NCBI GenBank assembly: GCA_964484985.1
Contig: CAZAHP010000001.1
Coordinates: 1-38,830 of the forward strand
Source of the DNA: an uncultured Methylophilaceae bacterium
Lineage (GTDB): Bacteria > Pseudomonadota > Gammaproteobacteria > Burkholderiales > Methylophilaceae
Direction: 5' to 3'
DNA length: 38,830 nt
Shown: piece by piece, positions 10,803 to 30,694 of the stretch
Layout: every line of letters starts with the position of its first letter
How positions within the stretch are numbered: position 1 is the stretch's first letter
Notes under the pieces: model-generated
What the model saw: only the letters and a program-made list of their open reading frames with translations
Told to the model about the DNA's origin: nothing
Database searches by the model: none
Made by a program: the position numbers and the translations under genes

Positions 10803-10803
10803 G

Positions 10804-14032: not shown

Positions 14033-14039
14033 AAATCAC

Positions 14040-14589: not shown

Positions 14590-14650
14590 GGGTAATTGGC
14601 CTGCTTACGTGCAACAATTTGCATGTTGATAAATGTCTGAAGAGAAAAAG

Positions 14651-15328: not shown

Positions 15329-16734
15329 TGAATCCAAAATCAATTACTTCCCGTCTAACGCTGTTTTTTTCAACAGCATCGACTCTTGTATTGCTTATAG
15401 TAGGGTTACTAGTTGGTTCTCTGGTGGAATCGCACTTCGAAGAACAAGACCTAATGGAGCTTCACGGTAAATTGGAACTTGTCCGTCATACGCTGATTAA
15501 GGTTCACACTCCATCCGATCTCACGACCGTTCCACAAAGTCTTTCTGATGCGCTGATTGGTCATCCAGATCTTTCAGTCGCAATTCTTGGGCCAGATCAT
15601 CGCATATTATTCACTTCGCCAAGTGCTGCATTTGCCACTCACCTTCTTGAACAACCAAGCAGTAAAGAATTATCTGGTGAAGCAAAGCTCGTGATGTGGG
15701 ATCAAGGAGGACGAGTATATCGCGGCATCTCTGCTAATGCAGACACAGGTATTGCTGGACAGCCATCGGCCACTGTTGCGCTTGCAATTAGCATAGAGCA
15801 TCACCAAGCATTCATGAAAGCATTCCATAATAATTTGTGGATGGCAATCACTGCAGGTATTCTACTAACCATACTACTCGGCTGGGTTGCCGCCCGCAGA
15901 GGGCTGGCCCCAGTACGTCAAATGGCGGATGTAGCAAAAGGCATTTCGGCAAATCACCTTAGCGATCGCCTATCATCAAACTCCGTCCCTCCCGAATTAG
16001 CCAACCTTGCAATTGCCTTCAATGAAATGCTGGCTCGTCTGGAGGGTTCATTCCATCGCTTATCAGACTTCTCATCTGATTTGGCTCATGAGTTAAGGAC
16101 ACCTATCAGCAACTTGATGACGCAAACACAGGTAGCTTTATCCAAAGGGCGGTCGGCAGACGAGTACCGTGAGGTGCTATATTCAAATCTAGAAGAGTAT
16201 GAGCGACTGGCACGAATGATTGCCGATATGCTTTTTCTGGCAAAGGCTGACAATGGGCTGATAATACCAACTAACGAAATAGTAGACTTAGCTAAGGAAG
16301 GGCGAGAACTGTTTGGTTTCTATGAAGCGATTGCAGATGAACAAGGCATAAGCCTGATTCTCACAGGAGAAGGCACCGTTAGAGGTGACAGGCTAATGCT
16401 TCGTAGGGCTTTAAGCAATTTACTCTCAAATGCTATCAGACACACTTCACACGGCGGATCAATTAAGGTGTTCATCGACCAATCCAAGCCAGAAGAAACA
16501 AATCTTGCCATCGAAAATCCTGGGGAGACTATAGCGACGGAGCATCTATCCAGATTATTCGATCGTTTTTATAGAGTTGACCCTTCCCGCCAGAAAGCCA
16601 GCGATGGCGCGGGGCTTGGGCTTGCTATTACGAAATCGATTATTGAGGCACACCAAGGAAATATTCAGGTGTTTTCTTCAAATGGATTGACCCGTTTTGA
16701 AGTTAAATTTCCAAATGACAAATTAACCTCATAA
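15325..16734 (+). CDS. cusS: heavy-metal sensor histidine kinase (CusS/CopS/SilS family)
   Basis: Two TM segments flanking a periplasmic domain, HAMP, H-box [15 protein letters not shown] boxes LSNAIRHT and [13 protein letters not shown] overlap with cusR. Confidence 0.95.
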
Positions 16735-16860
16735 TTTAATTTAATCCAGTCTGATAGCAATCAAATCATAATTGTCTATTAAAGTCGAGTGGAAACTCTG
16801 TTAAAGGCATTGCTCTTCCTGAAGGCCTGTAAACAATTCTTAGCTTAAGTATTTTTGAAG

Positions 16861-17559
16861 TTACTCATTAGTGGCAAGATAGTGTGTTCGCATTTTTCGC
16901 GCCTTTCTCTGGTTAGCTTTTGCTTCGTTCATTCTATTAAGTAACACCTTTATTTTTGACTGTAAATCCTCCATTTCAGTTAACAAGTCATCCTCATAAT
17001 TGGCTTTTTTCAGCGATATTATTTCGGCTTCTAAATCTCTAATTTTTGTAGTCGCCTTCTGATGCTCCAACAAATAACACCTATTCGCGTTTTGCACTTC
17101 ACGTATCATCGTTAAATCATTTGGCTCAAAGGTCAAGTCACCTCGGTGAGGGCACGTCAGTCTGCCGTTTGTTCCAATAAACCATCCTGCCCAGTCCTTA
17201 TTTGAAAGTCTAAAATGTACGCTCTCTTCGACTAGTCTTAGTAGTTCGAATGCCATAAATGGTACTGGTCTCTTGTCTAACTCCCATAGTTTAATTTCAC
17301 GTTCAGTTACACGTAGATATGCAGCACACTGCTTAACAGACATATCTAACATAAACTGTCTCATGTAAGTGAATTGCTTTGCGCCTGGTGTAATTTTTTG
17401 TGATTGTTGCACCCATAAAGGGTGATATTCTGGCCACGCTTCGTTGATTTTGCTACTTGTAGGCTCTATTGCTTGCATGTAATAGGCCCAGCGAGTCATT
17501 TCGTTTGGGTAAGGTTTGGGTTTTGATTTTATAGTAGTATTTTTTCTTATTATTGCCAT
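16861..17559 (-). CDS. putative HTH regulator (DUF3653-like phage/ICE regulatory protein) with C-terminal coiled coil
   Basis: MSVKQCAAYLRVTEREIKLWE...PVPFMAFELLRL...WAGWFI..GRL.CP pattern recalled from DUF3653-type proteins. Not searched. Confidence 0.55.
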   Translation of the reverse strand: MAIIRKNTTIKSKPKPYPNEMTRWAYYMQAIEPTSSKINEAWPEYHPLWVQQSQKITPGAKQFTYMRQFMLDMSVKQCAAYLRVTEREIKLWELDKRPVPFMAFELLRLVEESVHFRLSNKDWAGWFIGTNGRLTCPHRGDLTFEPNDLTMIREVQNANRCYLLEHQKATTKIRDLEAEIISLKKANYEDDLLTEMEDLQSKIKVLLNRMNEAKANQRKARKMRTHYLATNE

Positions 17560-17653
17560 GTTACAGTCTCGTCGTTTTTAGTTTTAGTTACCCACTAACC
17601 GCGTGGAAACAAAATTTTAGAGTTTGACTCAACCCTAATTTGTTAACAAAGGT

Positions 17654-17681: not shown

Positions 17682-20033
17682 TTAATGCAACAACTGTTTT
17701 GCTAATGCTACTTCTATACTATCACCTGACTGATTTAAGACATCTAAACCAGAATCAGGCATATCACCAGATGTTGATTGTGATACTGCTATTTTCTTTG
17801 CCATAAGTTCTAAACACTGCATCTGTGCGCTGTCCTCATAACCTAAGTACCACACTTCTACATCTTCTTCTTGACCGATCCGCCAACTTCTACGTGCAGC
17901 TTGCTGTACGGTGTAAACGTTATAGCCACTTTGCATAAAGACGATAGTAGGAAACTCCAACATATCAAGACCCGTTTTAACAAGCTCTTGGTTCGTGATA
18001 ATAATATCCACTCCCCTATCCACCTGGTCAAACAGCCAATCTTCACGCTTAACAGCATCAACGCTAGATCTTAATACAGCTACTTTAAAGCCTTCTTTTT
18101 CAAGAAAACCTTTAAGTCTTGCAGCTGTATCACGCTTACCCGTGTAAGTCGTATAGACTAAAACACGGCGGCCACGTAACTTATTAGATCTACAGATTTC
18201 CAATAATTCTTGCTCTTTTGGAGTAAGCGTATTGTCATCAAATATTTCCACCAAGTAAGCAATTTGCTCTTTGGTTCTAGGATGTCTGACAAGCTCATCC
18301 CTGAAACAAGTATCTGGCCATGCAAGCAATACATTTAAAACCACACCTAGTAAGCTGGTATCACCTTTACGAAGCGCCTCTCTCAGCTCTCCAGTTAAGG
18401 TTGCACTGAGTGAGTGATACATTGCACGCATCTCACTCGTCATCAGCACTTCTTTAAAGTACTCTTGATATGGCGGTAAAATATCGCCACCAATATCTTT
18501 GAGCTTTAAAAATACTGTGATTGGTAAAATATAACGCATGATCCCCATCGGACTAAAGCCTGGTCCTTTGGATGTTCTATGAGCTACAGTATTACCACGC
18601 GCAGTACGATGTGAACCACCTTCCGTTTCCTTATAAATATCTTTAAGAATACCGTGCTCACGCATGAAGCCCATTGATGCTGTACCAAGTGTGTTTCGTT
18701 CGTTATAGTCAAATCCATCTTCGATCATCATTGACGGATTCAAACGGTGCAACAAATAGAACAAATCATCAGCATAACCACCCATTAGCGTACCAGTTAG
18801 CAACAGGATCTTTTGACACTTCGCTGCTAATACACCCATGGCTTGGCCTTGAGCCGAACTTTCATTCTTGTACTCATGCCCTTCATCAACGATTAACAAG
18901 CCAAAATAGCCTTGTGGTAAGTATCGTTTGATAAATTCAGTAGGTTGGTAACCGCCCTGGCCAAACGAAAATTCTATGTTTGCCATTGCTCGCTCCATTC
19001 TACGTGCTTGCCTGTCATTGAAATACAGCTCACCATCTTCATCCATTAAGTTGATGAACTCATAAACGTTGTCGTTAAGCATTCCAGATAACATGTCAGC
19101 ACCGAACTTATCTAATAAGTTAGCAGCCGTTTTATCGCCTATGGTTGGAATTTGGCATAGGCTTTTGGCCACCAATTCTTTAGTGTTCATAGGTTGGCCA
19201 TTTTTACTGACCAATGTCCATAAACGCTCTCCACAGTCACGTTCTGCCACACGTGAAACACCATCCTCACTTGCAACTTTACGAAACACTTTATGCTGAC
19301 AAGAGGCGCGTTTCTCATTGAGAATTGCTCCAGCCATCAATGCTGAGACTGGGTTCCCATCATCATCGAGTAATAAACCGCCACAACTAGGGCAAGCGGC
19401 ATACCGAACTCGTTGCTTATGTTCACCTTCACCTACTAGCATTTTTCTAATAGAAAATGCAGGTTTCCAATTGAAACCCATACGCATGCGTACACGCCCC
19501 ATGATAAAAAACTCAGGCACTTGTGGCTTGCATTGCATAGCACGCAACTCTAAAAGCTTGCGTAAGGTATCAGGTCCGTTCAGTATCCAAACACGCGCAT
19601 TATGTACGGTAGCTTTGATTTCTCTACGCCACTTATAGACTAAATGCGGTGGTGAAATAACAAGTGACCTTGTGTAACCCTCTTCGTGTAATACCGCTGC
19701 AGCCGCGATAGCCATCATCGTTTTACCTGTGCCCATTTCGGCATTGATAATCGCTGCAGGTTGCTTATGATCTATCAACAACTTTGAGACAGCCTGGACA
19801 ACTTCTTGCTGTGGCTCAAATGGTTTTCTAAGCAATCCCTCCATCAATTCTTTACGAACTAAATCAGGGTTTCCATCATAAATTGATGGATTTTGCTTTT
19901 GAACCGCTTCTAATAAACCATGCCCAAACTCGGCAATAAACTGGCTCAGTGGTATTACTTCTTCAGCTGCACCTTCTCCATCTAAACGTTCTGCTAAAGC
20001 AGTGTCGTCATCTTCAAAATATTGCGTTGCCAT
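17682..20033 (-). CDS. SNF2/DEAD-like superfamily-2 helicase with a Zn-ribbon-containing insertion
   Basis: Walker A AEMGTGKT, DEGH box (LLIVDEGHEYKN), motif VI QQAARRSWRIGQ. About 280 aa lie between motifs I and II, including CPSCGG...C. Confidence 0.9.
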   Translation of the reverse strand: MATQYFEDDDTALAERLDGEGAAEEVIPLSQFIAEFGHGLLEAVQKQNPSIYDGNPDLVRKELMEGLLRKPFEPQQEVVQAVSKLLIDHKQPAAIINAEMGTGKTMMAIAAAAVLHEEGYTRSLVISPPHLVYKWRREIKATVHNARVWILNGPDTLRKLLELRAMQCKPQVPEFFIMGRVRMRMGFNWKPAFSIRKMLVGEGEHKQRVRYAACPSCGGLLLDDDGNPVSALMAGAILNEKRASCQHKVFRKVASEDGVSRVAERDCGERLWTLVSKNGQPMNTKELVAKSLCQIPTIGDKTAANLLDKFGADMLSGMLNDNVYEFINLMDEDGELYFNDRQARRMERAMANIEFSFGQGGYQPTEFIKRYLPQGYFGLLIVDEGHEYKNESSAQGQAMGVLAAKCQKILLLTGTLMGGYADDLFYLLHRLNPSMMIEDGFDYNERNTLGTASMGFMREHGILKDIYKETEGGSHRTARGNTVAHRTSKGPGFSPMGIMRYILPITVFLKLKDIGGDILPPYQEYFKEVLMTSEMRAMYHSLSATLTGELREALRKGDTSLLGVVLNVLLAWPDTCFRDELVRHPRTKEQIAYLVEIFDDNTLTPKEQELLEICRSNKLRGRRVLVYTTYTGKRDTAARLKGFLEKEGFKVAVLRSSVDAVKREDWLFDQVDRGVDIIITNQELVKTGLDMLEFPTIVFMQSGYNVYTVQQAARRSWRIGQEEDVEVWYLGYEDSAQMQCLELMAKKIAVSQSTSGDMPDSGLDVLNQSGDSIEVALAKQLLH

Positions 20034-20038
20034 CGTGC

Positions 20039-20100
20039 TCTCCTAAAATAAAAAAAGGGAGCACGACCCCGAATGGGCAGTAACTCCCCATCGGGTTAAA
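20039..20100 (-). promoter_or_regulatory. short leader module A (UAACCC box, terminator-like hairpin, U7, SD)
   Basis: Minus strand: UUUAACCCGAUGGGGAGUUACUGCCCAUUCGGGGUCGUGCUCCCUUUUUUUAUUUUAGGAGAGCACGAUG. Confidence 0.8.
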
Positions 20101-20113
20101 ACAAATTTAAATA

Positions 20114-20659
20114 CTAAATCTTAATTAAAAGATTGGTCTCAATATACTCATACAACTGAAAATCAGGCATGCTCTGCTTTGCATTTTCGTACTCAACAAC
20201 TAATGCATTCAACAGTTGGCCAACTTTAGTTATATTCAGTGATATTTCTTTATGGTTTAGGGTATCGCTACCATCCCCAGTTGAGAAATAATCAGCTTCA
20301 TTTGAACAATGCTCGATAACGTTATTGAATGCCTGGAGCAATGGATCTGAGCTTTCAGGTACGTCATCATCTTCAATGTTGTATTGCAAACCTTCCTCAG
20401 CAGGTATCTCAGTGACAAAATACCCTAGACGATTTACATAATGCCAGCCATTAACAATTAACCATGAACTTTCCTCACTATCAATAAGCGTCCAAATAGT
20501 GAGTGGATTGATTTTATTTTGCTCTAGGATGAATTCATATTCTTGACCATAAGTCTCAAACATGTGGCCATCATAAGAAGCATTATTATCAAGGTGGTTC
20601 TTGACTGGTTTAAATTGTTCCCAGAACTGATCATCTGTTAACTTAACTAATTGATTCAT
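20114..20659 (-). CDS. acidic hypothetical protein
   Basis: 181 aa, own SD behind module B, D/E-rich; no family recognised. Confidence 0.7.
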   Translation of the reverse strand: MNQLVKLTDDQFWEQFKPVKNHLDNNASYDGHMFETYGQEYEFILEQNKINPLTIWTLIDSEESSWLIVNGWHYVNRLGYFVTEIPAEEGLQYNIEDDDVPESSDPLLQAFNNVIEHCSNEADYFSTGDGSDTLNHKEISLNITKVGQLLNALVVEYENAKQSMPDFQLYEYIETNLLIKI

Positions 20660-20665
20660 GGTGTA

Positions 20666-20720
20666 CTCCTAATAAAATAGGGTGCACCATGCCCAAAGGG
20701 TGGTTACACCCTTGGGTTAG
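20666..20720 (-). promoter_or_regulatory. short leader module B
   Basis: CUAACCCAAGGGUGUAACCACCCUUUGGGCAUGGUGCACCCUAUUUUAUUAGGAGUACACCAUG. Confidence 0.75.
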
Positions 20721-20734
20721 TATTAAATTTATAT

Positions 20735-21325
20735 TTAGCTAATTAAACGTGCTGTGCCTTCGTTGATTGATCCAATTAAATAGCCGCGCTGAAACACATA
20801 ATTGTCATTGAATATGATCCGCTTACCTTCTTTTCTGGATACTCTAAATTGATTGCTTGAGTATCCATTTTTGAAAGTGACTGGTTGCTCAAATTCAATA
20901 AGACTGCCAACGGTTAACGAGGCTATGAATTTGCTAGCGTTCTTTTTACTTTGGAGCCTTTGATGACAACGTTCGCGCCACTCATTGGCATACTCATGAA
21001 CAGTAGGCGTTAGCTTATTTAAAATGCGTAGTGGGCAATTGTAAGCACATGGACCACAACTTTCATCCATATCCTTATAGCAAATGTTGTTGCGGCTATC
21101 TTTGTGTAAAGTCACCAAAGTAATTGACGCAAATACCCTACGCTCACCCGTTTGTTTGTTGATGCATTCAACAGCTGCATAGAATTCACTGAAATTAACG
21201 AAAGCACTATCTAATACTTTATACGTATTAGGACTTTCATCACTCCAAGTAAATACGCCGCTACTTAAAAGAAAATCCGACACCGATTGTTCTTTCTGCT
21301 TATAGGTACAAGTCCATCCCATCAT
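20735..21325 (-). CDS. hypothetical Cys-containing protein
   Basis: True start MMGWTCTYKQ at 21325 behind AAGGAG. The 36 N-terminal residues in the ORF track are read-through of repeat C. Confidence 0.7.
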   Translation of the reverse strand: MMGWTCTYKQKEQSVSDFLLSSGVFTWSDESPNTYKVLDSAFVNFSEFYAAVECINKQTGERRVFASITLVTLHKDSRNNICYKDMDESCGPCAYNCPLRILNKLTPTVHEYANEWRERCHQRLQSKKNASKFIASLTVGSLIEFEQPVTFKNGYSSNQFRVSRKEGKRIIFNDNYVFQRGYLIGSINEGTARLIS

Positions 21326-21328
21326 GCT

Positions 21329-21567
21329 CTCCTTAAAATGAAAAAAGGGAGCACGACCCCGAATGGGCAGTGAACTCCCCATTGGGTTAAAACAAACTTC
21401 ATGTAATCCTGGTCTTGCGACCGTTGTTTTCAAGGACTGAACAACTTTAAAAGCAACACTTACGGTGTTAATCGAGCTTTAACTGAAAGCTAACAGTGAG
21501 ACACTCATAAGTACCAGGTACTTTTCTCAAATACACGCTTGGCCATGTGTTTGAGAAAAGCCCCTGA
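21329..21567 (-). ncRNA. long structured leader element C (short module plus hairpins P4-P1 plus overlapping hairpins T3/T2/T1)
   Basis: 21320-21505 is identical over 186 bp to 24961-25146. Hairpins GGUC-GCAA-GACC, GUUGUU/AACAAC, AACAC/GUGUU, AGCUUU/AAAGCU. Confidence 0.75.
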
Positions 21568-21586
21568 AGGCTTTTCTTATTCTACA

Positions 21587-22243
21587 TCAACTACATTTTG
21601 TTACCACTACATCTTGAATACTACCGATTTCGTCATCCAACTTCCAACTGGATGCAATAAAATCATCTGACTTAACCATTAGCAAAGCATGCTCTCGTGC
21701 GCTTTCTTCACTGCCTGCTTTAATAAGCAGCTCACATGACTCTGAAGCTAAGCGCATTACCAGCACTTTGTAGTTGCCTACGTCATTTGGTATTGCAAAG
21801 CCATTATTTCCATAAGTAGCTTTTGTTGGCCACTCATAGACTAACTCGTAATTAAGTATGACAAAATCATCTGCATTAGCAGGTAACGTTAATGCCTGCA
21901 GCTCACCTTCGCCTGCACTTGCATAATAATAAATGCTGTCATCATTAACGCCATAACCATCATGTTGATTGTGTTCGGTAAACGTTCCAAATGAAATGTA
22001 CACATCACTTACAGTGCCCTCATCCAACAATTGAATCCGACACTCTGCACCTATAGGTTCTTGGCTTTGTGTATAGAGTGTATCTTTACCCACAAAATCA
22101 TCCATCTCCCATTTTCCTTGAAATAGTGGGTCATCAAAGACTTCTCGTGCTAACTTTAAGGACTCTTCCATATTAATAGCATCTATGCTGATAGTGCATG
22201 ACTCAGTTAAAGCATGTGTAGCTGTTACTAAAAACTTACTCAT
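21587..22243 (-). CDS. acidic hypothetical protein with N- and C-terminal copies of an ESC..I.A...EES...A motif region
   Basis: 218 aa. Compare LTESCTISIDAINMEESLKLAREVFDDPLFQGKWEMDDFVG with ASESCELLIKAGSEESAREHALLMVKSDDFIASSWKLDDEIG. Confidence 0.7.
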   Translation of the reverse strand: MSKFLVTATHALTESCTISIDAINMEESLKLAREVFDDPLFQGKWEMDDFVGKDTLYTQSQEPIGAECRIQLLDEGTVSDVYISFGTFTEHNQHDGYGVNDDSIYYYASAGEGELQALTLPANADDFVILNYELVYEWPTKATYGNNGFAIPNDVGNYKVLVMRLASESCELLIKAGSEESAREHALLMVKSDDFIASSWKLDDEIGSIQDVVVTKCS

Positions 22244-22249
22244 TTTATT

Positions 22250-22307
22250 CTCCTGAAAATATCAAGAGAAACCCCGCCTCGCGGTGGGGTTCCGCTTGAC
22301 GGGTTAA
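22250..22307 (-). promoter_or_regulatory. short leader module D (variant with GCGA-tetraloop hairpin)
   Basis: UUUUAACCCGUCAAGCGGAACCCCACCGCGAGGCGGGGUUUCUCUUGAUAUUUUCAGGAGAAUAAAAUG. Confidence 0.7.
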
Positions 22308-22320
22308 AATATATATACGT

Positions 22321-23418
22321 CTATCGAATACTTACAATCTGGCCGTAACCTTCGCCTGGCGTGAAATCTATTCCAGTAATGGCTGGTATAAATTTGTCAG
22401 TAAAAGTTCTGGTTTCTGAAACTACTCCATTGTCACTTGTTTCGTGTGTCACAACCAGATCACGTTGCTTAAAGGTATCCCCTTTAATTAACAGCCTTCT
22501 ACCTGATTCAGACTCTACTACACCTGAGATCTGGCCAGCTGCAAGCGCTAAGGCTAAATGCCAGTTGGACAAAGCACGTAATGGTTGCCTAGGCTTGTCT
22601 TCAGCTACCGTAAACATCGTGTTAAATTGTGACCAAAGCGTATTTTTGCTTAACCTATTCAGTTCAGACTCTAATTGTCGGCCATCAATACGAATGGCTG
22701 TGAATTTAAGGTCTGCCTCCCGTATTTCTGGGACTAAATAGGGTTCTGCTTGCCAAAATTCTGGCAACACTGGGGCTTCACCAGTACCGCATAGCTCAAG
22801 AAGTTTTTGTGTTTCCACATCAACCATTTCAGCACGACGCTTCACACCAAAGATCACACACTGCTTAAATTGCTTTTCAGGTGACATAAACACTTTCACT
22901 TGCGAAAAATTGCGAGCGATCATGCTGGAATACTCTTTATCCAGTACATAGTACGGAACAATGAGCACCATCACGCCACCAAACTGCAACCAAGGCATTG
23001 TCTTACGGTAAAACTGCTTTTCAAGTCGATCACCCACTGTTTTACTGCCACAAGTGGCAGCTTTGTCAGAAACAACATCGCCGTATGGTGGGTTTAGGAA
23101 CAATAAACTTTGGCTACGCGCAGTAATAAAAACATCGTTAATATCACAGTGTGCAACCTTATCAAGCAGTGTCTTGGAATGCCAGGCACGCTCTTCATCG
23201 TACTCAACTCCCAATGCACTTACAGTAGATCCGCATTCAGTAAGATGATGCTTTATCTCAGCCAAAGCGGTTCCCTCTCCACAACAAGGATCCAGTATGC
23301 TTAGATTTGAACCACTAATATCCAAAGCATTGATTATTCTGGCCAACGTCATTTCATCCGTTGGGTAATACCCGTTTTTCAAAAAATTATGCGCTAAGCG
23401 CGAAAACATTAAAGCCAT
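22321..23418 (-). CDS. orphan N6-adenine DNA methyltransferase (motif I then NPPY; possibly DUF6094-type)
   Basis: ILDPCCGEGTAL (SAM motif I) and FLNPPYG (motif IV). No adjacent endonuclease-like ORF. Confidence 0.85.
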   Translation of the reverse strand: MALMFSRLAHNFLKNGYYPTDEMTLARIINALDISGSNLSILDPCCGEGTALAEIKHHLTECGSTVSALGVEYDEERAWHSKTLLDKVAHCDINDVFITARSQSLLFLNPPYGDVVSDKAATCGSKTVGDRLEKQFYRKTMPWLQFGGVMVLIVPYYVLDKEYSSMIARNFSQVKVFMSPEKQFKQCVIFGVKRRAEMVDVETQKLLELCGTGEAPVLPEFWQAEPYLVPEIREADLKFTAIRIDGRQLESELNRLSKNTLWSQFNTMFTVAEDKPRQPLRALSNWHLALALAAGQISGVVESESGRRLLIKGDTFKQRDLVVTHETSDNGVVSETRTFTDKFIPAITGIDFTPGEGYGQIVSIR

Positions 23419-23424
23419 GATGTA

Positions 23425-23480
23425 CTCCTAAAAAATAGAGACACCATGCCCTTGTGGGGATGATGTCCCCACAGGGTTAA
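23425..23480 (-). promoter_or_regulatory. short leader module E
   Basis: UUAACCCUGUGGGGACAUCAUCCCCACAAGGGCAUGGUGUCUCUAUUUUUUAGGAGUACAUCAUG. The stem needs two G-U pairs on the minus strand. Confidence 0.75.
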
Positions 23481-23482
23481 AA

Positions 23483-23719
23483 TTAATACTGACCTAAATT
23501 ACATATCACGCCTTTAGAATAAGAATATGGTCCTATGCTGAGAGGCTGTATATGATGGCCACTACCTTTGAGTGATACACACAGCCGTCTAAATTGCTCG
23601 ACAGTGCATGGCTCAATCACAAATGCGGTTTTATCAAAATCTGTTTGCTCGACTGTTACATCAGAGCCACAAACTTTAACGGCCGCATGATTGACTTTCA
23701 TTAGATCTAGGTTAGTCAT
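23483..23719 (-). CDS. small hypothetical protein
   Basis: 78 aa; 8-nt overlap with the upstream gene (translational coupling). Confidence 0.6.
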   Translation of the reverse strand: MTNLDLMKVNHAAVKVCGSDVTVEQTDFDKTAFVIEPCTVEQFRRLCVSLKGSGHHIQPLSIGPYSYSKGVICNLGQY

Positions 23720-24194
23720 GTGTTACCTGGTGATGAGGATGATTTATAAGTTTCAACTGCTCAAATTCATCAAACTGCATGAACCAACTATCCAAACTAC
23801 AACCTGAGTACACATCTTGAGCTGCAATCGATAAACCGTCTGGAAAGATCCGTAGGTGTATTTCATTCACTCTGACTATCGGCATATCTGCTAAAAGCGT
23901 TTGACTGCGATTTTCGCCTATGCAATTTTGAGCAAACATCAGCTCTATATCACTTGGTATCTCATTGAAGTAATGGCAGTCTATTTGCTTACCATGGTGA
24001 CGAAGTGAGTTAACACCTGCCAAAATGGATATATCAAACAAACCGAGCTTGTCATGCAGCGCACTTGCTTCTTTTACAAATGGTAATAGATCCTGCAAAT
24101 CGAAGCTCAACACTAAATAGCGTGGAAGCGCGTCATTATTGGTGACTTTTGCATCGTAAAAAGTCTTGGTGACGATTTTGTAAATGCTAGTCAT
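23712..24194 (-). CDS. hypothetical protein
   Basis: 160 aa; 8-nt overlap with the upstream gene. Confidence 0.65.
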   Translation of the reverse strand: MTSIYKIVTKTFYDAKVTNNDALPRYLVLSFDLQDLLPFVKEASALHDKLGLFDISILAGVNSLRHHGKQIDCHYFNEIPSDIELMFAQNCIGENRSQTLLADMPIVRVNEIHLRIFPDGLSIAAQDVYSGCSLDSWFMQFDEFEQLKLINHPHHQVTHD

Positions 24195-24966
24195 GATTGA
24201 CCACCAACTTCAATAGTGTGGTGTTAGTTTCAACCTCACTATCATTAGCTGCTACGGGGTAATCATCTTCGTAGAAATCATCATTACTATGACCAAACTC
24301 ATCAATGCAAATTTGACGAAAATCACCGTCTTCATCATCAACCATGCCACCATTATTACAGTATGCCACGCCTGCAAAACCACCGCCTTCATCTGCATAA
24401 GCCATCCTGAAGCTTAATTCAGGAAACGCTGCGCTCATTGCTTCAAGTACTGGATAGGCTGGCGACCAGGCTGTTTCATAGTAACAACGGAAAACGGTGT
24501 CGGAACTATCATCAGCTAATGCGTGGTTGTATGCATCCCACTTAGTCCCCCAGTTCACTATGCTCCATTCATACCAAGTTTCGTACCCATATTTTGCAAT
24601 ATTGGTAACCACTTTATGACCTAACTCAACTGCTTCAGGTTTATGTTTTGCGAACCAAGCCAAAAACTTCGGCCGAGAATGATGTAGGGCATTGATATTA
24701 GTCTGTGAAAGCTGCTCTTCTTGCATCAGCTTAATAACCCAAGGGTAATTCAGCACCGTTTTAAAATCACCTGCGACCACTTCTTTACCTAAGCTTGATT
24801 CTGATCCGCATGTAATTTGGAGTTCTTCAGGCATTGGAATGACACGGTTAAATACTAAACAATGTTCTACTTCACCAATTTTTTCACAAAACTTGGCTTT
24901 GAACGCTGCAATGTCGGCTGCATTACCGTTTACTTCTAAATTAGTCCAAACGTGGTTAGGCATCAT
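24187..24966 (-). CDS. DUF1281-like (Api92-like ferredoxin-fold) protein with acidic C-terminus
   Basis: MMPNHVWTNLEV..., WYEWSIVNWGTKWDAYN, ETAWSPAYPV. True start at 24966; the ORF-track N-terminus is repeat read-through. Confidence 0.7.
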   Translation of the reverse strand: MMPNHVWTNLEVNGNAADIAAFKAKFCEKIGEVEHCLVFNRVIPMPEELQITCGSESSLGKEVVAGDFKTVLNYPWVIKLMQEEQLSQTNINALHHSRPKFLAWFAKHKPEAVELGHKVVTNIAKYGYETWYEWSIVNWGTKWDAYNHALADDSSDTVFRCYYETAWSPAYPVLEAMSAAFPELSFRMAYADEGGGFAGVAYCNNGGMVDDEDGDFRQICIDEFGHSNDDFYEDDYPVAANDSEVETNTTLLKLVVNHD

Positions 24967-24969
24967 GCT

Positions 24970-25218
24970 CTCCTTAAAATGAAAAAAGGGAGCACGACCC
25001 CGAATGGGCAGTGAACTCCCCATTGGGTTAAAACAAACTTCATGTAATCCTGGTCTTGCGACCGTTGTTTTCAAGGACTGAACAACTTTAAAAGCAACAC
25101 TTACGGTGTTAATCGAGCTTTAACTGAAAGCTAACAGTGAGACACTACTAAGTACCAGGTACTTTTCTTAAACACACGCATGACCATGTGCTTGAGAAAA
25201 GCCCCTGAAGGCTCTTCT
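24970..25218 (-). ncRNA. long structured leader element F
   Basis: 186-bp identity with element C, then diverged T3/T2/T1 hairpins with a G-U compensated T1. Confidence 0.75.
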
Positions 25219-25225
25219 TACTACT

Positions 25226-25543
25226 TTACTTGGTTAATGATAATGCCATTAAATATTTATGGCATTCCTGGCATCCACAAGGCTTAACATAGCCTGACTT
25301 AAATATTTCTAAGCATTGGCTTATATTGTCCTCATGAATACTGTGTGTTTCTGACTGCGTATTGATATATCCATATTTCAAATGCACCCAGTAACCATCA
25401 CCATCCTTACCTTGACTACGATAATCTTCAATTTCATTGATGTACATTGCATAGGGTTTTAGGCTTGTTGGTATTGTTACGTTCTTAGTCACTTTCAGCT
25501 CAACACGTAAGTTATAAGCTAGCATATCTACCGAATCACTCAT
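25226..25543 (-). CDS. small hypothetical protein
   Basis: 105 aa, ATGA overlap with the upstream gene, CGCQEC near the C-terminus. Confidence 0.6.
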   Translation of the reverse strand: MSDSVDMLAYNLRVELKVTKNVTIPTSLKPYAMYINEIEDYRSQGKDGDGYWVHLKYGYINTQSETHSIHEDNISQCLEIFKSGYVKPCGCQECHKYLMALSLTK

Positions 25544-26718
25544 GCTGCAGCCCTTCCGTATCTTTGCTCAATAAGTTGCTTAATTTCGCTCAGTGGTTTT
25601 GGCTCAAAATACAGATCCAATTCAACATGTAATGGCACTTGTACGGCGGTCTTACTGCTACCCTCATATAAATCACCTTTGACATGAATCTGTGTACCCA
25701 CTAACTCACTAATTGAAATATAGCCCAGCTCAGCACACATTAAATCGCCATTGAGTATTGCGTAGCCAAATGCTTGCGACACGCCATCCTCAATATCTTT
25801 TTCAATAATGTACCAATCTGAATCACCTAAAAAGTAATGCAAACTCACCACTGGATCGTTTTCATCTTCACAGTCGTAAGTTTTAGGCATGCTGCCAATT
25901 CTATAAGCCATTTCTTTGAATTTTTCCTCAAAGAAACTACCCTCTTCACCTTTGCAACATTCCAGCATCGATAAATACTGTTGAGTAGATAAATAAGGCC
26001 TTAACGTAGCTTTTGCCTGCTTGCTGATGTACTGTGAATCTGATGTTGGTTGTTTACTCACGATACTATTGTGATTAACCAGACTTGCATCAAACTGTTG
26101 GCCATCAATACCGATCAATCCTGACTTCACCATGCTAGATATGATCTGGGTAAACTCTGCATCGATCACCAACTTGGCCGCGCTAATTTTACCTATTGGT
26201 GGGTAGTTGATCGTGTTCATCCAAGTGACGCAAATTTCATTATTGGAATGCATGATTGCAGACTGCCAATCATCCAACAATGGAACTGGGGAAAGATTCT
26301 TGTAAAGCCCCCATACGCCTCTTAAAAGCTGTTCACGTACACCTACATCACCCCAAGGTTGATTAAGCACCACCCAGCCTGCTTTTGTGGCTTTGCTAGG
26401 ACTAATCAGTACAGGATCGTAAATCCAAAGATGCGTTAGATTGCCAAATAGATTATCTTTAGGAAACCGACCACTATAGACCTCAAAACGATCTGGATTA
26501 CCAACTTGTACACTATGCGGCGTTTCTTTTTTATCGTTACAATTGCGTAATGAAAAATTAGAAATGCCGCCACTATTGGGTTTTAATTGCATGGAAGCTT
26601 TGAACTGCTGAATTGCAGTATCTCGGCCATAAACGGATAGAAACATTAACTCACCTGATTCATTCCGCAGACAAGCATCCACAAATAAATCAGCCAATTC
26701 AACGACTTTATAAAGCAT
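25540..26718 (-). CDS. protein with C-terminal DUF2958-like domain and unknown N-terminal 250 aa
   Basis: LHYFLGDSDWYIIEKD...AFGYAILNGDLMCAELGYISISEL matches the remembered DUF2958 pattern. Start at ATG 26718. Confidence 0.75.
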   Translation of the reverse strand: MLYKVVELADLFVDACLRNESGELMFLSVYGRDTAIQQFKASMQLKPNSGGISNFSLRNCNDKKETPHSVQVGNPDRFEVYSGRFPKDNLFGNLTHLWIYDPVLISPSKATKAGWVVLNQPWGDVGVREQLLRGVWGLYKNLSPVPLLDDWQSAIMHSNNEICVTWMNTINYPPIGKISAAKLVIDAEFTQIISSMVKSGLIGIDGQQFDASLVNHNSIVSKQPTSDSQYISKQAKATLRPYLSTQQYLSMLECCKGEEGSFFEEKFKEMAYRIGSMPKTYDCEDENDPVVSLHYFLGDSDWYIIEKDIEDGVSQAFGYAILNGDLMCAELGYISISELVGTQIHVKGDLYEGSSKTAVQVPLHVELDLYFEPKPLSEIKQLIEQRYGRAAA

Positions 26719-26725
26719 GGTATCG

Positions 26726-26780
26726 CTCCTAATAAAAAGGGATACCTGCCCTGATGGGGATGGTATCCCCAATGGGTTAA
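26726..26780 (-). promoter_or_regulatory. short leader module G
   Basis: UUAACCCAUUGGGGAUACCAUCCCCAUCAGGGCAGGUAUCCCUUUUUAUUAGGAGCGAUACCAUG. Confidence 0.75.
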
Positions 26781-26793
26781 AGTAATCTATTGA

Positions 26794-27204
26794 TTAACTA
26801 CGAAGCTTTTCAGCAATTTCAACTGCCACACCCCGCCAACCTTCTGGTGAGATGAGTCCATTTCGCATTGATTCCAATTCTTCAATTGGAGTATTGGCAA
26901 CCAAGTTTGCAAATTTGCTTACTGCATCCATAACGAACATTTGAGCCAATGCACCAAATTTGGAATACTCCATAATTCCTGTGATTTTCTCAATGTTTGT
27001 TGGGTTATTAGACGATGAGTAGCTGCTATGGCTACTTTCATTCATCAAAGCTTCGGTTAAACTACCATTTTCCGATTCGGCATCAGTTGCTGCCTGCGCA
27101 TCACTTGTTGTACAGCCAAAACTTTCTAATTGCTGTACGCGAAGTTGATATAGCTGCTGTTCATCCAACGCACCCAGTTTGATTTTAATTGATGTAATTC
27201 TCAT
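26794..27204 (-). CDS. acidic helical hypothetical protein
   Basis: 136 aa, SD GGAGAGC behind element H. Confidence 0.65.
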   Translation of the reverse strand: MRITSIKIKLGALDEQQLYQLRVQQLESFGCTTSDAQAATDAESENGSLTEALMNESSHSSYSSSNNPTNIEKITGIMEYSKFGALAQMFVMDAVSKFANLVANTPIEELESMRNGLISPEGWRGVAVEIAEKLRS

Positions 27205-27210
27205 AGCGCT

Positions 27211-27447
27211 CTCCTAAATATAAAAAGGGAGCACGACCCCGAATGGGCAGTGAACTCCCCATTGGGTTAATACAAACTTCATGTAATCCTGGTCTTGCGA
27301 CCGTTGTTTTCAAGGACTGAACAACTTTAAAAGCAACACTTACGGTGTTAATCGAGCTGTAACTGACAGCTAACAGTGAAACTGATTTTCTAAAAAATGC
27401 GTTGGCCACACTTTTTAGAAAACCCACTCATAGAGTGAGAGTTTTCT
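27211..27447 (-). ncRNA. long structured leader element H
   Basis: Same as C except for a compensatory P1 change (AGCUGU/ACAGCU) and different T2/T1 hairpins of the same layout. Confidence 0.75.
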
Positions 27448-27452
27448 TGATT

Positions 27453-27743
27453 CTATTTCAACATACCACTGCCATGACAAGCATCACATACTTCATCATC
27501 AGGCATCACTTCATCTGGGTAATAGTGGCCAGGAACATAAACGTTCATAAATCCACAACCTGAGCATTTATTACACACTGATTGATGACTGTACAACTCA
27601 ACACTGATGGTTCTATTGGGATGTTCGGTTTTTTTACTTTTTTGCGTCATACACTTTGCATGTGATTGCGGTGTAGCTGTTAAATAGGATTTAATACCTG
27701 ACTTAACGTTAACCGCAACTAGGTGATAGAGAGATTCAATCAT
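27453..27743 (-). CDS. small protein with DnaJ-type CxxCxGxG zinc-finger motifs
   Basis: CNKCSGCGF and CDACHGSG; 8-nt overlap with the upstream gene. Confidence 0.65.
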   Translation of the reverse strand: MIESLYHLVAVNVKSGIKSYLTATPQSHAKCMTQKSKKTEHPNRTISVELYSHQSVCNKCSGCGFMNVYVPGHYYPDEVMPDDEVCDACHGSGMLK

Positions 27744-28341
27744 GATTCACAGCCTTTCTAGCCCAAGACTGTGTAATTGCATCAAACAGATAACCATGCT
27801 CTTTTAATACATCACGCTGCTGACGGAATAAAGCCCTATCTACCGTTGGATCAAGTTTTACTGGTATGTGATTAGCTATTTGATAAATTAACTCAACACC
27901 AACAATAGGCACTAAGTTTTCATAATCTTTAACAGCGTCATTAGTCAGTTTGTATGAATCTGCGACTACCGTTTTAGACTCTGTAGTATTTTCAGACTCT
28001 ACGTTAGTGCTAGGCTGGACTGTAGATTGTGCAGCTGCAGCTTCGTTAACTGGATCAGGTTCAGGTACCGTAATATCTACTTCACCTTCGTCTGCAGTAT
28101 CAAGCCTAATGTCTGTCACTTTAGCTCTAATATCAGTCGTTGATTTTCCACGCCAAACATAAGAGCTTAAATAGAAGCTTTCTATAACAAACTCACCTTC
28201 ATAGCGCCCCTCCTCGAATTGATCAAGAATGGATTCTTTGACTTTGAATTCACCTATTGAAGTGCTTAAATCTCCAGTACAAAACTTGCCATTTGCCCCA
28301 GAAATTTGTTTTACTGTTAATACTCCGTTAATTGTAATCAT
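27736..28341 (-). CDS. DUF3275-like ICE protein
   Basis: MITINGVLTVKQISGANGKFCTGDLSTSIGEFKVKE...EGRYEGEFVI resembles remembered DUF3275 N-termini. Start at ATG 28341. Confidence 0.7.
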   Translation of the reverse strand: MITINGVLTVKQISGANGKFCTGDLSTSIGEFKVKESILDQFEEGRYEGEFVIESFYLSSYVWRGKSTTDIRAKVTDIRLDTADEGEVDITVPEPDPVNEAAAAQSTVQPSTNVESENTTESKTVVADSYKLTNDAVKDYENLVPIVGVELIYQIANHIPVKLDPTVDRALFRQQRDVLKEHGYLFDAITQSWARKAVNHD

Positions 28342-28347
28342 ATTGCT

Positions 28348-28404
28348 CTCCATAAAATAAAAAAGGGAGCAATCCCATAAGGGCTTGGCTTCCCCTTTGG
28401 GTTA
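28348..28404 (-). promoter_or_regulatory. short leader module I
   Basis: AUAACCCAAAGGGGAAGCCAAGCCCUUAUGGGAUUGCUCCCUUUUUUAUUUUAUGGAGAGCAAUAUG. Confidence 0.75.
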
Positions 28405-28440
28405 TGTAAAAATGTAAACTTCAAACAAAGGATAAGTCCC

Positions 28441-28644
28441 ATGTTGAAGTCAGGAAATACCATCAGATTAAACAATGCAGATATTGATAGAATTGCAGGA
28501 CTTGCTGGTGCCAGTCCTCAAGGCATAAATACCGCACAAGGTTTAAATAATTTTATAAGTTTTCACTTAACTCAGTATTCTAATAAAACGCCAGAAGAAA
28601 AACTTCTAGCGTTATTATTAGAATCTGAAAAAGTAGCTATCTAA
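28441..28644 (+). CDS. possible small plus-strand ORF (only plus-strand candidate in the island)
   Basis: 67 aa, AAGGA 8 nt upstream, converges on and overlaps 28637..28834 by 8 nt. Could equally be non-coding. Confidence 0.3.
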   Translation: MLKSGNTIRLNNADIDRIAGLAGASPQGINTAQGLNNFISFHLTQYSNKTPEEKLLALLLESEKVAI

Positions 28645-28834
28645 TTACGTCAGTGCCTAATGTTGTCATCGCCTGACAATAAACATCCCAAAGCCCTTGC
28701 CTAAGTTCTGGGTCTGCATTTAACTTATCTACTAATCGTTTTGCACCCTCTTTAGTAGATGCCAAATCTAGCAAATATGAATGTTGTTTTTTCTGCCATT
28801 GCACATCAGAAATAAAAGTTTTTGGTGTAACCAT
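28637..28834 (-). CDS. small hypothetical protein
   Basis: 65 aa, canonical GGAGAGCAUCAUG start context behind element J. Confidence 0.55.
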   Translation of the reverse strand: MVTPKTFISDVQWQKKQHSYLLDLASTKEGAKRLVDKLNADPELRQGLWDVYCQAMTTLGTDVIR

Positions 28835-28840
28835 GATGCT

Positions 28841-29065
28841 CTCCTAAATATATAAAAAGGGAGCACCACCCCGAATGGGCAGTGAACTCCCCATTGGGTT
28901 AATACAAACTTCATGTAATCCTAGGTATTGCTACCCGTTGTTTTCAAGGACTGAACAACTTTAAAGCAACACTTACGGTGTTAATCGAGCTGTAACTGAC
29001 AGCTAACAGTGAAAACGTTTAATGGCTTTCTAAAAAACACATCTATTTGTGTACTTTAGAAAGCC
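28841..29065 (-). ncRNA. long structured leader element J
   Basis: P4 is GGUA-GCAA-UACC (compensatory relative to C/F/H). T2 is GGCUUUCUAAA/UUUAGAAAGCC. Confidence 0.75.
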
Positions 29066-29397
29066 CCCAGGGCAACCCTAGAGACTGAAAGCCTGCACCA
29101 TCCAATCGTATTAGATCGTGACGCGTAATAGGCAACAAACGCGGATTTAGCGGCATGGCCGCAAACGGCGTGGAAGTCTAGGTCTCCACAACCCATAGAT
29201 TCAACTTAAGCATAACAGGAGTTGAAACCAGTGATATTGATCCGTGTGATCACAGAAAAATATCACTGGTTTCCGAATAGGGAAGACAAACTTTCGGTCT
29301 GTCTCGGGATTGAGTACAAGGTTCACGAGGCCCGTACAATTGCACCATTGAATAACGAGACGAAATTCATTCCAGTATGAATGGCAGAACTGGACAT
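29066..29397 (-). other. orphan GC-richer structured non-coding segment
   Basis: No credible ORF. 14-bp perfect stem 29224-29237/29260-29273. GUACGGG/CCUUGUAC helix (29314-29337) with G-U pairs only on the minus strand. Confidence 0.4.
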
Positions 29398-29535
29398 AAA
29401 GCAACACTTACGGTGTCAAACGCGCTAACTTAGCGAACGAGAAAATTATTCGGTGAATTTTGTTAGTTTGGGAACTTCACTTATGAGTTATCCCATAAGT
29501 GAAATCCCCAAGGGAGATTTCAAAAACCAGCTTTG
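29398..29535 (-). repeat. partial (distal-half) copy of the long element plus terminator-like hairpins after the DUF3577-like gene
   Basis: aaagcaacacttacggtgt (29398-29416) is identical to the P2 region of C/F/H/J. Followed by hairpins ttcacttat/ataagtgaa and atcccc/gggagat. Confidence 0.55.
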
Positions 29536-29537
29536 GC

Positions 29538-30407
29538 TTATTCAGCTTGGGCTAATTGAGTTTCATTTTCTTCAACTTGATTCGTGTTTTGCTCATTATC
29601 ATCGGCTTCAGAAGAAGCTAATGTTTCAGTAAGCAATGGGGTACGAACGCCATCTAAGAAAACTGCACTTATTGCGGTAAGAGCACCAATAAACTTAGCA
29701 CCTTTATCGCCAGCTTTATTAACACCAACATCTTTGGTATAAGTAAAATCAAATTTTTTGAGATTACTTACTTCAAAACGGGCAATAACTGCTGTTTCTT
29801 TACTGCTGATTTTTTGCAAGTGTTGCATGTTGCTAACTAAAGTTGTATCAATATCGCAGCTAATACGAGTGGTCTCAGCTTTAATACCTAAGTCTTTGTT
29901 ATATTCACCATGTAGCGCAGCTATAGAACAAGACATTGCGTTGGTTCTGAATGATCTAATATCATTAATATAACCAAAACCGAAAGTACCAAGTTTACGA
30001 GTATCATTAACAGGTAACTCTTCAAACGCACTGCCATTTACTGAGACATTAACTAAGTCCAATAAACGACCTTTAGCCATAAAACCTTTATCACCTTTTT
30101 GATGTTCACCAACGTCTTTATCATAAGTGAAATCGCTAATAGATAAATCACTTGCAATCCATTTAGCTTTAATTACAGCATTTTTATCAAAATGTGGCTT
30201 GATAAGCTCCAAAGCTTTAACAGCTTTAGTACTTACAGCAATCACATCAACTGATAAATCGCCAGAACGTAAAGTACAAGCATAAAAAGGTTTCCCTTTT
30301 GCTGGCTTAACCAAACGGATACGGTTAACGTAACCTTCGCTAATGTTTGTTAAATCAAAAAAGCGAGATTCGTTAGTTGTGTTAGTTGAAGTTGTAGTGT
30401 TAGTCAT
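29538..30407 (-). CDS. tandem-duplicated DUF3577-like protein (possible ssDNA-binding-type fold)
   Basis: FFDLTNISEGYVNRIRLVKPAKGKPFYAC resembles remembered DUF3577 N-termini. The internal repeat is marked by DFTYDKDVGEHQKGDKG and DFTYTKDVGVNKAGDKG. Acidic tail. Confidence 0.75.
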   Translation of the reverse strand: MTNTTTSTNTTNESRFFDLTNISEGYVNRIRLVKPAKGKPFYACTLRSGDLSVDVIAVSTKAVKALELIKPHFDKNAVIKAKWIASDLSISDFTYDKDVGEHQKGDKGFMAKGRLLDLVNVSVNGSAFEELPVNDTRKLGTFGFGYINDIRSFRTNAMSCSIAALHGEYNKDLGIKAETTRISCDIDTTLVSNMQHLQKISSKETAVIARFEVSNLKKFDFTYTKDVGVNKAGDKGAKFIGALTAISAVFLDGVRTPLLTETLASSEADDNEQNTNQVEENETQLAQAE

Positions 30408-30413
30408 GATGCT

Positions 30414-30596
30414 CTCCTAAATATAAAAAAAGGGGAGCATTACCCGATTGGGAAATGAACTCCCCAATGGGTTAAAACTAAACATAAAATGAAATCCTAG
30501 AGTTTGCACTCCGTCGTTTACAAGGACTGAACGACATTAAGGCGGTCATTTGCGTTAACCAAACGAACTGAAACTGACAGTCAACAGTGAAACTAA
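30414..30596 (-). ncRNA. long structured leader element K (most diverged copy)
   Basis: P4 GAGU-GCAA-ACUC, P3 GUCGUU/AACGAC, inner stem CAUU/AAUG; all compensatory relative to C. Confidence 0.7.
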
Positions 30597-30602
30597 GGCA
30601 GC

Positions 30603-30629
30603 TTAATAACGAAAAGCCAAACGAGTCAA
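30603..30629 (-). promoter_or_regulatory. weak sigma70-like promoter candidate upstream of element K
   Basis: Minus strand TTGACT-N15-TATTAA (spacer short, or TTTGAC-N16). Confidence 0.25.
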
Positions 30630-30694
30630 AGACTAATTAATGCAATACGCATTTTCCGCAAATAATTTTAGTTGTCAATAGTTAAACATTGTTT

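Follow-up and report, generated by a model that had tools for sequence, protein, structure and literature searches.

The stretch of DNA analysed here, in the following referred to as the window, comprises 38,830 nucleotides (nt) from an uncultured Methylophilaceae bacterium (GenBank assembly GCA_964484985.1, contig CAZAHP010000001.1, positions 1 to 38,830). Its part between 17.6 and 38.8 kb represents the conserved portion of an island of the integrative conjugative element (ICE) or gonococcal genetic island (GGI) type; the genes of this portion are all located on the minus strand and comprise, according to Pfam, those for SSB, TopB, DUF3577, DUF3275, DUF2958, DUF1281/Api92-like, DUF6094 methyltransferase, DUF6927 and SNF2-type helicase proteins. 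Eleven genes of unrelated families in 20028-30478 each possess, directly upstream, a leader of approximately 75 nt, here termed the TAACCC module, in which a U-rich-AACCC box, a hairpin, a U tract, GGAG and the ATG start codon succeed each other in the 5' to 3' direction. A preliminary description of the window had proposed that the 3' arm of this terminator-like hairpin pairs either with its own 5' arm or with the Shine-Dalgarno (SD) sequence and start codon downstream, and that both pairings co-vary among the modules. The genes behind the modules of the window and of the related loci treated below (Pfam: ArdC, DUF3577, DUF3275, RadC, RecT, SSB, ParB, SNF2 helicase, methylase) are of establishment or anti-restriction types; such cassettes (ArdC, SSB, RecT, RadC, methylase, helicase and uncharacterised proteins) decide on the survival of a conjugative island upon its entry into a new host.

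Positions and helix anatomy of the modules

A covariance model of the element (R1) detected exactly eleven modules on the minus strand of the window; its sole other match in the 38.8 kb was weak, located on the plus strand and overlapping one of the modules, K (11.6 bits, E=0.14; the E-values of R1 are rough). The pattern TAACCC-N3-GGGG..CCCTTTTT..GGAG occurred eight times in the window versus 0.00 expected occurrences, and TTAACCC..GGG was present at eight sites versus 0.21 expected matches.

Each module was found to contain three helices (P1, T and P2) rather than two. P1 (9-10 bp) joins the box strand CCC-N3-GGG to the CCC-N3/4-GGG located at the apex of the terminator-like hairpin; T consists of the 5' arm paired with the 3' arm, with the apex as its tip and the U tract 3' of the stem; P2 is formed by the 3' arm and GG(A)G plus spacer, often including the AUG, and encloses a U-rich loop. 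Formation of T precludes P1 as well as P2 and keeps the SD unpaired. The pairing of the box CCC with the GGG of the 5' arm, as given in the preliminary description, was wrong in detail: the box CCC is clamped to the GGG on the 3' side of the apex, and the GGG(G) of the 5' arm to the apex CCC. Six G/C clamps per module (box CCC, GGGG, apex CCC, apex GGG, arm CCC, and the GG(A)G of the SD) are separated by cassette-specific filler, and every G-run has two possible C-run partners. Invariant positions are restricted to the paired clamps and to an unpaired U-rich stretch ending in AA directly 5' of P1 (A in 78% and 91%), for which no helix accounts; the P1 loop is variable.

The arrangement is exemplified by module J (28829-28905, minus strand as all modules; R1 65.1 bits, supported by its folds), the leader of a 65-aa open reading frame (ORF; 28637-28834). 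Its UAACCC box (28896-28901), with the conserved AA-CCC, contributes the CCC (28896-28898) that starts the 5' strand of P1 (CCCAAUGGG, 28890-28898). The 5' arm of T (GGGGAGUUCACUG, 28880-28892) has its GGG in common with P1 and provides the P1 loop with its remainder; the adjoining apex CCCAUUCGGG (28870-28879) serves either as 3' strand of P1 or as tip of T. The shared strand is the 3' arm GUGGUGCUCCC (28859-28869), the partner of which is the 5' arm in T and the SD/AUG region in P2. It is followed by the U tract and A/U-rich P2 loop (28845-28858) and by the translation initiation region (TIR) GGAGAGCAUCAUG (28832-28844; SD 28841-28844, AUG 28832-28834), which constitutes the 3' strand of P2.

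Module K (30402-30478; 76.3 bits) folds into P1 and P2 and precedes the DUF3577 gene (29538-30407). Among the other modules with Pfam-assigned genes, I (28336-28408; 58.8 bits) is the leader of the DUF3275 gene, G (26713-26783; 55.7 bits) of the DUF2958-like gene, F (24958-25034; 62.6 bits) of the DUF1281/Api92-like gene, E (23413-23483; 52.1 bits) of the DUF6094 methyltransferase gene, C (21317-21393; 61.7 bits) of the DUF6927 gene and A (20028-20102; 64 bits) of the gene for the SNF2-type helicase (17682-20033). Module H (27199-27273; 63.1 bits) precedes a 136-aa ORF, and module B (20654-20723; 46.2 bits), the P2 of which takes in the AUG according to its fold, a 181-aa ORF. Module D (22238-22310; 15 bits, E=0.007) is a divergent variant supported by its fold, with a CU-rich tract 3' of the hairpin as anti-SD. 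All pairs between 3' arm and TIR listed in the preliminary description (A, B, C/F, D, E, G, H, I, J and K) were present as written on the minus strand.

Compensatory change in the window and in other islands

Co-variation was examined by an alignment-free test in which the duplex energy of each strand with its own partner was compared, by permutation, with the energies obtained after swapping the partners among the modules. For the eleven window modules, the helix between 3' arm and TIR (P2) yielded -12.7 kcal/mol with own versus -10.0 kcal/mol with swapped partners (6/20000 permutations as good), and the hairpin of 5' arm and 3' arm -12.7 versus -9.1 kcal/mol (2/20000 as good); exact permutation of the seven mutually divergent modules gave 6/5040 and 5/5040, respectively, the modules being evolutionarily related so that none of these counts represents an exact probability. 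The three-way complementarity is real and lies far beyond chance; the claimed co-variation of both pairings held in the window. In P1, a compensatory change was apparent between module K (AAU/AUU) and module C (AUU/AAU).

Homologous modules were sought in two public collections with a pattern that fixed only TAACCC, GGGG, CCCTTTTT and GGAG and left the tested positions free. The scan yielded 38 genome and 110 metagenome loci (148), with true modules from Methylococcales, Pasteurellales, Neisseriales, Burkholderiales, Nitrosomonadales, Enterobacterales and Pseudomonadales. One might regard the modules as ordinary intergenic terminators with accidental complementarity to the SD: terminator-like hairpins followed by GGAG are common, approximately 17 chance matches were expected (own estimate from the degeneracy of the pattern), and 58 of the 131 distinct matches, mostly plain terminators and a few real modules, failed an automated P1 test. 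Indeed, about half of the distinct matches were plain terminators with GGAG by chance, and these provided a built-in negative control. The 53 chance matches from the same scans exhibited no preference of the 3' arm for its own TIR (-6.7 versus -6.5 kcal/mol, no signal); in contrast, the 56 distinct modules from outside the window reached -12.4 kcal/mol with own versus -8.1 kcal/mol with swapped partners (0/5000), in agreement with the window permutations. The ordinary-terminator explanation is thereby already refuted and retains virtually no probability, and the complementarity between 3' arm and TIR postulated for the window has proven to be present in the modules of other elements as well.

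Within the 148 loci, R1 detected 337 further matches at E<=0.001 in beta- and gammaproteobacterial islands (up to 13 in 8 kb, locus L075), nearly all of them in the same orientation as the seed match and the genes; the total amounts to at least 348 copies in the sequence sampled. In 134 matches from 23 non-redundant loci, the cells of P1 and P2 were paired in 79.7% (65.7% in shuffles), double-sided changes were observed in 381 cells (166 in shuffles), and the covariation score was 0.366 versus 0.149 in shuffles (0/500; slid controls 0.07-0.125). The middle pairs of P1 co-vary outside the window, one position being represented by UA (26), AU (25), CG (8) and GC (5). T is absent from the covariance model, and its own-versus-swapped signal outside the window (-13.7 versus -8.7 kcal/mol, 0/2000) is therefore unbiased; in fixed register its covariation score was 0.227 versus 0.170 in shuffles (0/500). 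The arms are misaligned in the MAFFT alignment (A1), and the fixed-register counts for T are diluted by shifts between CCC and CCCC, for which reason duplex tests independent of the register were preferred. Compensatory change has preserved all three helices, and more than 100 homologous modules of other elements have retained, by co-variation, both mutually exclusive folds of the preliminary description. Neither the window nor the modules matched any Rfam family at the gathering threshold or at E<=1; in ten module-rich loci, the only Rfam matches were STAXI and EFASI, situated beside the modules and not on them.

The strand on which the helices are stable discriminates between an RNA and a DNA element. 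T contains 171 G-U pairs on the sense strand versus 13 on the antisense strand and loses approximately two pairs per module on the latter (9.5 versus 7.6), an asymmetry that identifies T as an RNA structure, whereas the stability of P1 and P2 does not differ between the strands; the G-U pairs adduced previously for the helix of 3' arm and TIR thus have to be reassigned, the enrichment belonging to T and P2 being strand-symmetric. All copies point in the direction of the genes and extend to a start codon, behind which an ORF is present in 121 of 134 cases. Given this strict co-orientation, the anchoring on SD and AUG and the G-U asymmetry, a function at the mRNA level is by far the most likely one. 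It would be very improbable, though compatible with the symmetry of P1 and P2, that single-stranded DNA (ssDNA) is instead the form in which the hairpins act during transfer, as promoter or site of priming, or that they promote cassette shuffling as hot spots of recombination, with the RNA folds as by-products. Such DNA-level elements would fit the 97% identity over 260 nt of modules C and F together with their long leaders in front of unrelated genes (the repeat ending at the ATG), the cassette order of the window island, which is unlike that of the gonococcal island, and the leading-region-like neighbourhood. The pairing, however, is anchored on SD and AUG, the orientation is always that of the gene, T is biased to the sense strand, and sigma-70-like promoter hexamers are absent from the modules; moreover, shuffling may be a side effect of repetition and would leave the compensatory change unexplained.

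Two particular DNA elements were considered separately and rejected. An integron attC site is contradicted by the absence of GTTRRRY 3' of the hairpin and of an integrase in the window. Frpo elements of plasmid leading regions are hairpins of template-strand ssDNA that rebuild -35 and -10 boxes, and they resemble the modules in being repeated in front of ssb and anti-restriction-type early genes; an ssDNA promoter of this type is incompatible with the weaker antisense T (7.6 versus 9.5 pairs) and the lack of promoter-like sites in the modules.

Predicted folds and proposed mode of action

According to RNAfold, the minimum free energy fold was P1 plus P2 in 11 of 11 window leaders, the helix between 3' arm and TIR being present in all of them; every window leader was thus predicted to form two adjacent stem-loops, the 3' one covering SD and start codon. 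For 126 modules from outside the window, the SD tetramer was paired in 94% and the AUG in 39%, with mean predicted energies of -31.2 kcal/mol for the full leader, -20.9 kcal/mol for T and -18.3 kcal/mol for P1 alone. The predicted ground state is P1 plus P2, which lies approximately 10 kcal/mol below T once the TIR is present. The picture of two alternative folds given in the preliminary description was consequently sound with regard to their exclusiveness, but not as to their balance, for the SD-sequestered state comprises two hairpins and is more stable by about this amount. As long as the TIR has not been made, T and P1 differ little in mean energy (-20.1 versus -18.3 kcal/mol); in the window modules without TIR, T ranged from -10.8 to -20.5 kcal/mol and P1, where it was the best fold, from -13.0 to -18.6 kcal/mol. 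P2 by itself was as stable as T or more so in the window, its predicted duplexes of -8.8 to -17.4 kcal/mol being stronger than expected for an RNA thermometer. Refolding barriers calculated with findpath exceeded full unfolding and were taken as uninformative upper bounds.

T in turn has the GC-rich stem base with directly following U tract that characterises the hairpin of an intrinsic (Rho-independent) terminator: in the 126 modules, the U content was 81% in the first 6 nt 3' of the 3' arm versus 36% in the rest of the loop, and in 94 of them U occupied at least 6 of the 8 nt that follow the T stem.

An experimental precedent for SD occlusion by leader hairpins exists in the gonococcal island, to which the window island is related, as evident from the protein identities of helicase (53%), methylase (36%) and DUF1281 (30%); a CSD-like protein encoded by the gonococcal island had no homologue in the window. 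Two "RNA switches", the traH and parA leaders, have been described there (Callaghan et al. 2021, PMC8716806), and these two were the only stem-loop regulators counted in that work. The leaders with two stem-loops that occlude the ribosome-binding site repress translation up to approximately 400-fold (PMC8716806). For traH, SD and AUG are covered by two stem-loops, and the repression is lifted when one alternative stem-loop forms in their place (as summarised in PMC8716806, citing Ramsey et al. 2015); for parA, deletion of the stem-loops raised expression approximately 400-fold, and no alternative hairpin was found (PMC8716806). We located the traH leader via homologous proteins; it folded as published (-33.1 kcal/mol, z=-6.8), and its score with R1 (5.5 bits, E=0.33 in 401 nt) revealed no homology to the TAACCC module. 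Both reside in the same kind of island and share two adjacent leader stem-loops, of which the 3' one occludes SD and AUG; in both, the 5' strand of the occluding stem can instead enter a single alternative hairpin (T in the module), whereby the start site is released. The traH leader, in contrast, is devoid of TAACCC box, G/C clamps and U tract, and its alternative helix is composed of the 3' strand of stem-loop 1 (SL1) and the 5' strand of stem-loop 2, whereas in the module the partner of the 3' arm is the 5' strand and loop of P1, the 3' strand of which becomes the tip of the hairpin. An alternative fold favoured when the upstream strand of SL1 is unavailable, as in traH, was not generally observed for the modules, in which masking freed the SD in 20-24%. 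Finally, traH and parA possess single, promoter-proximal leaders, whereas the module is multi-copy, with eleven copies in the window and at least ten in the gonococcal island itself (L157, N. gonorrhoeae GCA_051160535.1, 144-10999). The TAACCC module is therefore classed as an SD-occluding leader switch in kind and not as a member of the traH family. In the gonococcal island the modules precede helicase, methylase and small ORFs in the "unknown function" half, which is reported to be dispensable for DNA secretion; this half would be densely riboregulated. What flips the gonococcal switch thereby becomes a family-wide problem, for which Neisseria, Actinobacillus, Pantoea and Eikenella are available as culturable hosts.

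We consider it probable (approximately 0.6) that the TAACCC module is a cis-acting mRNA leader, silent by default in the P1 plus P2 fold and with T as alternative, by which all cassettes are damped at two levels. P1 would be completed before the 3' arm is made and would hinder the formation of T; P2 would close as soon as the SD emerges, so that the default product would be a read-through but translationally silent mRNA. Were T to form with the polymerase on the U tract, it would probably act as an intrinsic terminator, and expression would depend on a factor or state that draws the 3' arm into T or opens P2 in another way. In this manner, the output of each establishment or anti-restriction cassette on the island would be held low by the module. 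The presumed silent read-through mRNA matches the situation in the gonococcus, where transcripts of the traH and parA operons are readily detected, whereas detection of the traH-operon proteins is difficult and ParA/ParB give very faint signals or none at all (PMC8716806). The attenuator-like expression platform in front of unrelated cassettes, as envisaged in the preliminary description, is supported by the Pfam families of the genes behind it and by the traH precedent (PMC8716806).

Several points weigh against the proposed default-silent leader with T as its alternative. All energies are predictions throughout, the alignment on which the P1 and P2 counts rest (A2) was itself fitted to these helices, and the kinship of the modules limits the permutation statistics as stated above. 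T is placed some 10 kcal/mol above the ground state; masking of the box strand alone freed the SD in just 20-24% of the modules (in the window only in D and partly in I), so that a simple "mask SL1" trigger is insufficient. Efficient termination by T would also switch the gene off, which leaves the path to the ON state unclear, and no RNA-binding effector was recognised by Pfam among the window proteins that could serve as candidate.

In a serious rival, although a rather improbable one, the module is a constitutive insulator of two layers without any dedicated trigger: T would terminate most of the transcription between cassettes and P2 would silence those transcripts that escape by forming P1 first, with low, noise-free expression of costly genes as the result and an output that rises only with promoter strength or tight coupling of transcription and translation (a "double damper"). 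The near-isoenergetic T and P1 before the TIR is made, the strong preference for P1 plus P2 afterwards, the lack of an effector in the window, and the readily seen transcripts but scarce proteins of the gonococcal operons (PMC8716806) are in accordance with such an insulator. A plain terminator with a weak SD would suffice for this purpose, however, without three co-varying helices and an invariant unpaired U-rich-AA box, and in traH the alternative fold, when induced, relieves the repression (PMC8716806).

The same four-segment topology is known from the erm/cat attenuators and would allow the ribosome to act as the trigger: translation or termination of an upstream ORF near the box would melt P1, T would take the 3' arm, and the SD would be exposed. 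Short-spacer modules do have an upstream stop codon 10-24 nt from the box CCC, at a constant 20-21 nt in A, B, D and G. A distance of 20 nt, however, exceeds the reach of a terminating ribosome; approximately half of the modules lie 150-330 nt behind the previous gene, so that the stop-codon distances are bimodal; a conserved leader ORF is lacking (ATG within 60 nt upstream in just 25 of 284 frames); the TAA of the box is no conserved stop (T at -3 in only 54%); and masking of P1 rarely freed the SD in silico. Ribosome-driven coupling is thus quite unlikely. Rejected on the same grounds was the box TAA as conserved stop codon, at which merely 3 of 57 upstream ORFs end. A leader peptide or upstream ORF across the module was likewise dismissed as a general feature, being present in C/F and I and not family-wide; in I (28338-28475) and C/F (21320-21350 / 24961-24991; minus strand), the upstream ORF spans the module and overlaps the main start as AUGA.

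If the default-silent leader is accepted, the question arises whether its copies obey one signal. Clamps and U-rich-AA-CCC box are identical in all copies, so that all cassettes would be answerable to the same factor or cellular state, and one shared control signal is plausible. The further-reaching possibility of a widespread multi-copy riboregulator family by which one post-transcriptional master signal controls, in the GGI/ICE-type islands of beta- and gammaproteobacteria, the whole set of cassettes for establishment and anti-defence is put forward only tentatively and is judged doubtful. The signal might be an RNA-binding factor encoded by island or host, or a state limited to the time during or just after transfer, and pre-made silent mRNAs would be released together, a scheme that would parallel, at the RNA level, the ssDNA promoters in the leading regions of plasmids. 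The single common trans-acting input inferred in the preliminary description has accordingly not been established: no aptamer-like core, anti-box RNA or RNA-binding candidate was found in the window. Conservation analysis of the modules detected no aptamer-like core, and a metabolite riboswitch was discarded for want of conserved unpaired aptamer positions, with a variable P1 loop and no Rfam match at E<=1. A separate anti-box RNA was discarded too, as GGGTTAAA occurs in the window solely as the complement of the modules themselves. Irrespective of the signal, a single leader of approximately 75 nt with three co-varying helices, in at least 348 sampled copies and outside Rfam, offers a concrete, mutable handle on the control of these cassettes.

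Related regulatory elements and neighbouring features

With the erm/cat attenuators and other terminator/antiterminator leaders, the module shares exclusive helices that compete for a common strand and an SD-sequestering helix as default; it differs in the absence of leader peptide and stalling site and in an anti-sequestor that doubles as terminator-like hairpin. Riboswitch expression platforms are similar in the competition of terminator, antiterminator and sequestor, but the module contains no aptamer, only clamps and the U-rich-AA box being conserved. In the mom/Com system of phage Mu, SD and AUG are locked in a stem that is opened by a factor binding to a hairpin just upstream; in contrast to the modules, this is a single locus with a known zinc-finger activator, and no homologue was identified in the window. 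The promoter-early stem-loop (PeSL) cassettes of T4-type phages, reportedly described by Arbiol, Comeau and Krisch in 2010, are short regulatory modules with a stem-loop that recur ahead of numerous unrelated small ORFs within a plastic region, where they likely promote shuffling; unlike the modules, PeSLs carry a promoter, and we know of no description of three-way RNA complementarity with the SD in them. The Rhodopirellula-1 motif (Weinberg 2010 supplement), which has an attC-like look, and the Cuckoo RNAs were compared and found to be unrelated to the module.

The motifs STAXI (RF01728), EFASI (RF02957) and radC (RF01754) are likewise structured RNAs near ssb, topoisomerase, anti-restriction, methylase and radC genes of proteobacterial islands. 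Their structures are different ones and matched neither the window nor the modules; they may correspond to a second class of element, long structured leaders 5' of modules C, F, H, J and K (approximately 21394-21579, 25035-25220, 27274-27459, 28906-29016 and 30479-30650, minus strand), and not to the module. In a Pantoea-like locus (L053; 2263-2412, 2842-2991, 4053-4203), STAXI and EFASI are placed directly upstream of TAACCC modules, and this placement suggests that the long leaders of the window are functional analogues of these orphan motifs. In each long leader, four small hairpins, one of them GNRA-capped, come after a long A/U-rich hairpin, and no Rfam match was obtained; the RNA fold of the H copy reached z=-5.0. 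The copies of C and F, in spite of the unrelated genes behind them, are those with the 97% identity over 260 nt mentioned above, and a promoter-like TTAACA-16-TAAAGT is contained in the copies of C, F and H. The strongest sigma-70-like site of the region (TTGACA-16-GAAAAT, 10/12; 30651-30678, minus strand) lies approximately 240 nt 5' of the DUF3577 start codon and probably drives the K leader. A non-coding stretch of 630 nt (28906-29537) separates the DUF3577 gene from module J; it holds partial copies of the long leader (e.g. 29397-29426) and may represent a decayed cassette or a small RNA.

Among the cassettes, the only small protein of nucleic-acid-binding look is encoded by a 96-aa ORF (27453-27743, minus strand) with two CxxCxGxG motifs of the DnaJ-type zinc finger and no Pfam match. 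No similarity of the window to plasmids or to E. coli genomes was found, and all of the listed occurrences of the protein encoded behind module K were on metagenome contigs. Positions 1-17600, which adjoin the helicase end of the module array, are occupied by copper/silver resistance cargo (CusCBA, CusF, CusRS, a P-type ATPase and YHS-domain proteins), and the opposite edge of the window (38764-38830) displays an exact direct repeat of 31 nt with a spacing of 36 nt.

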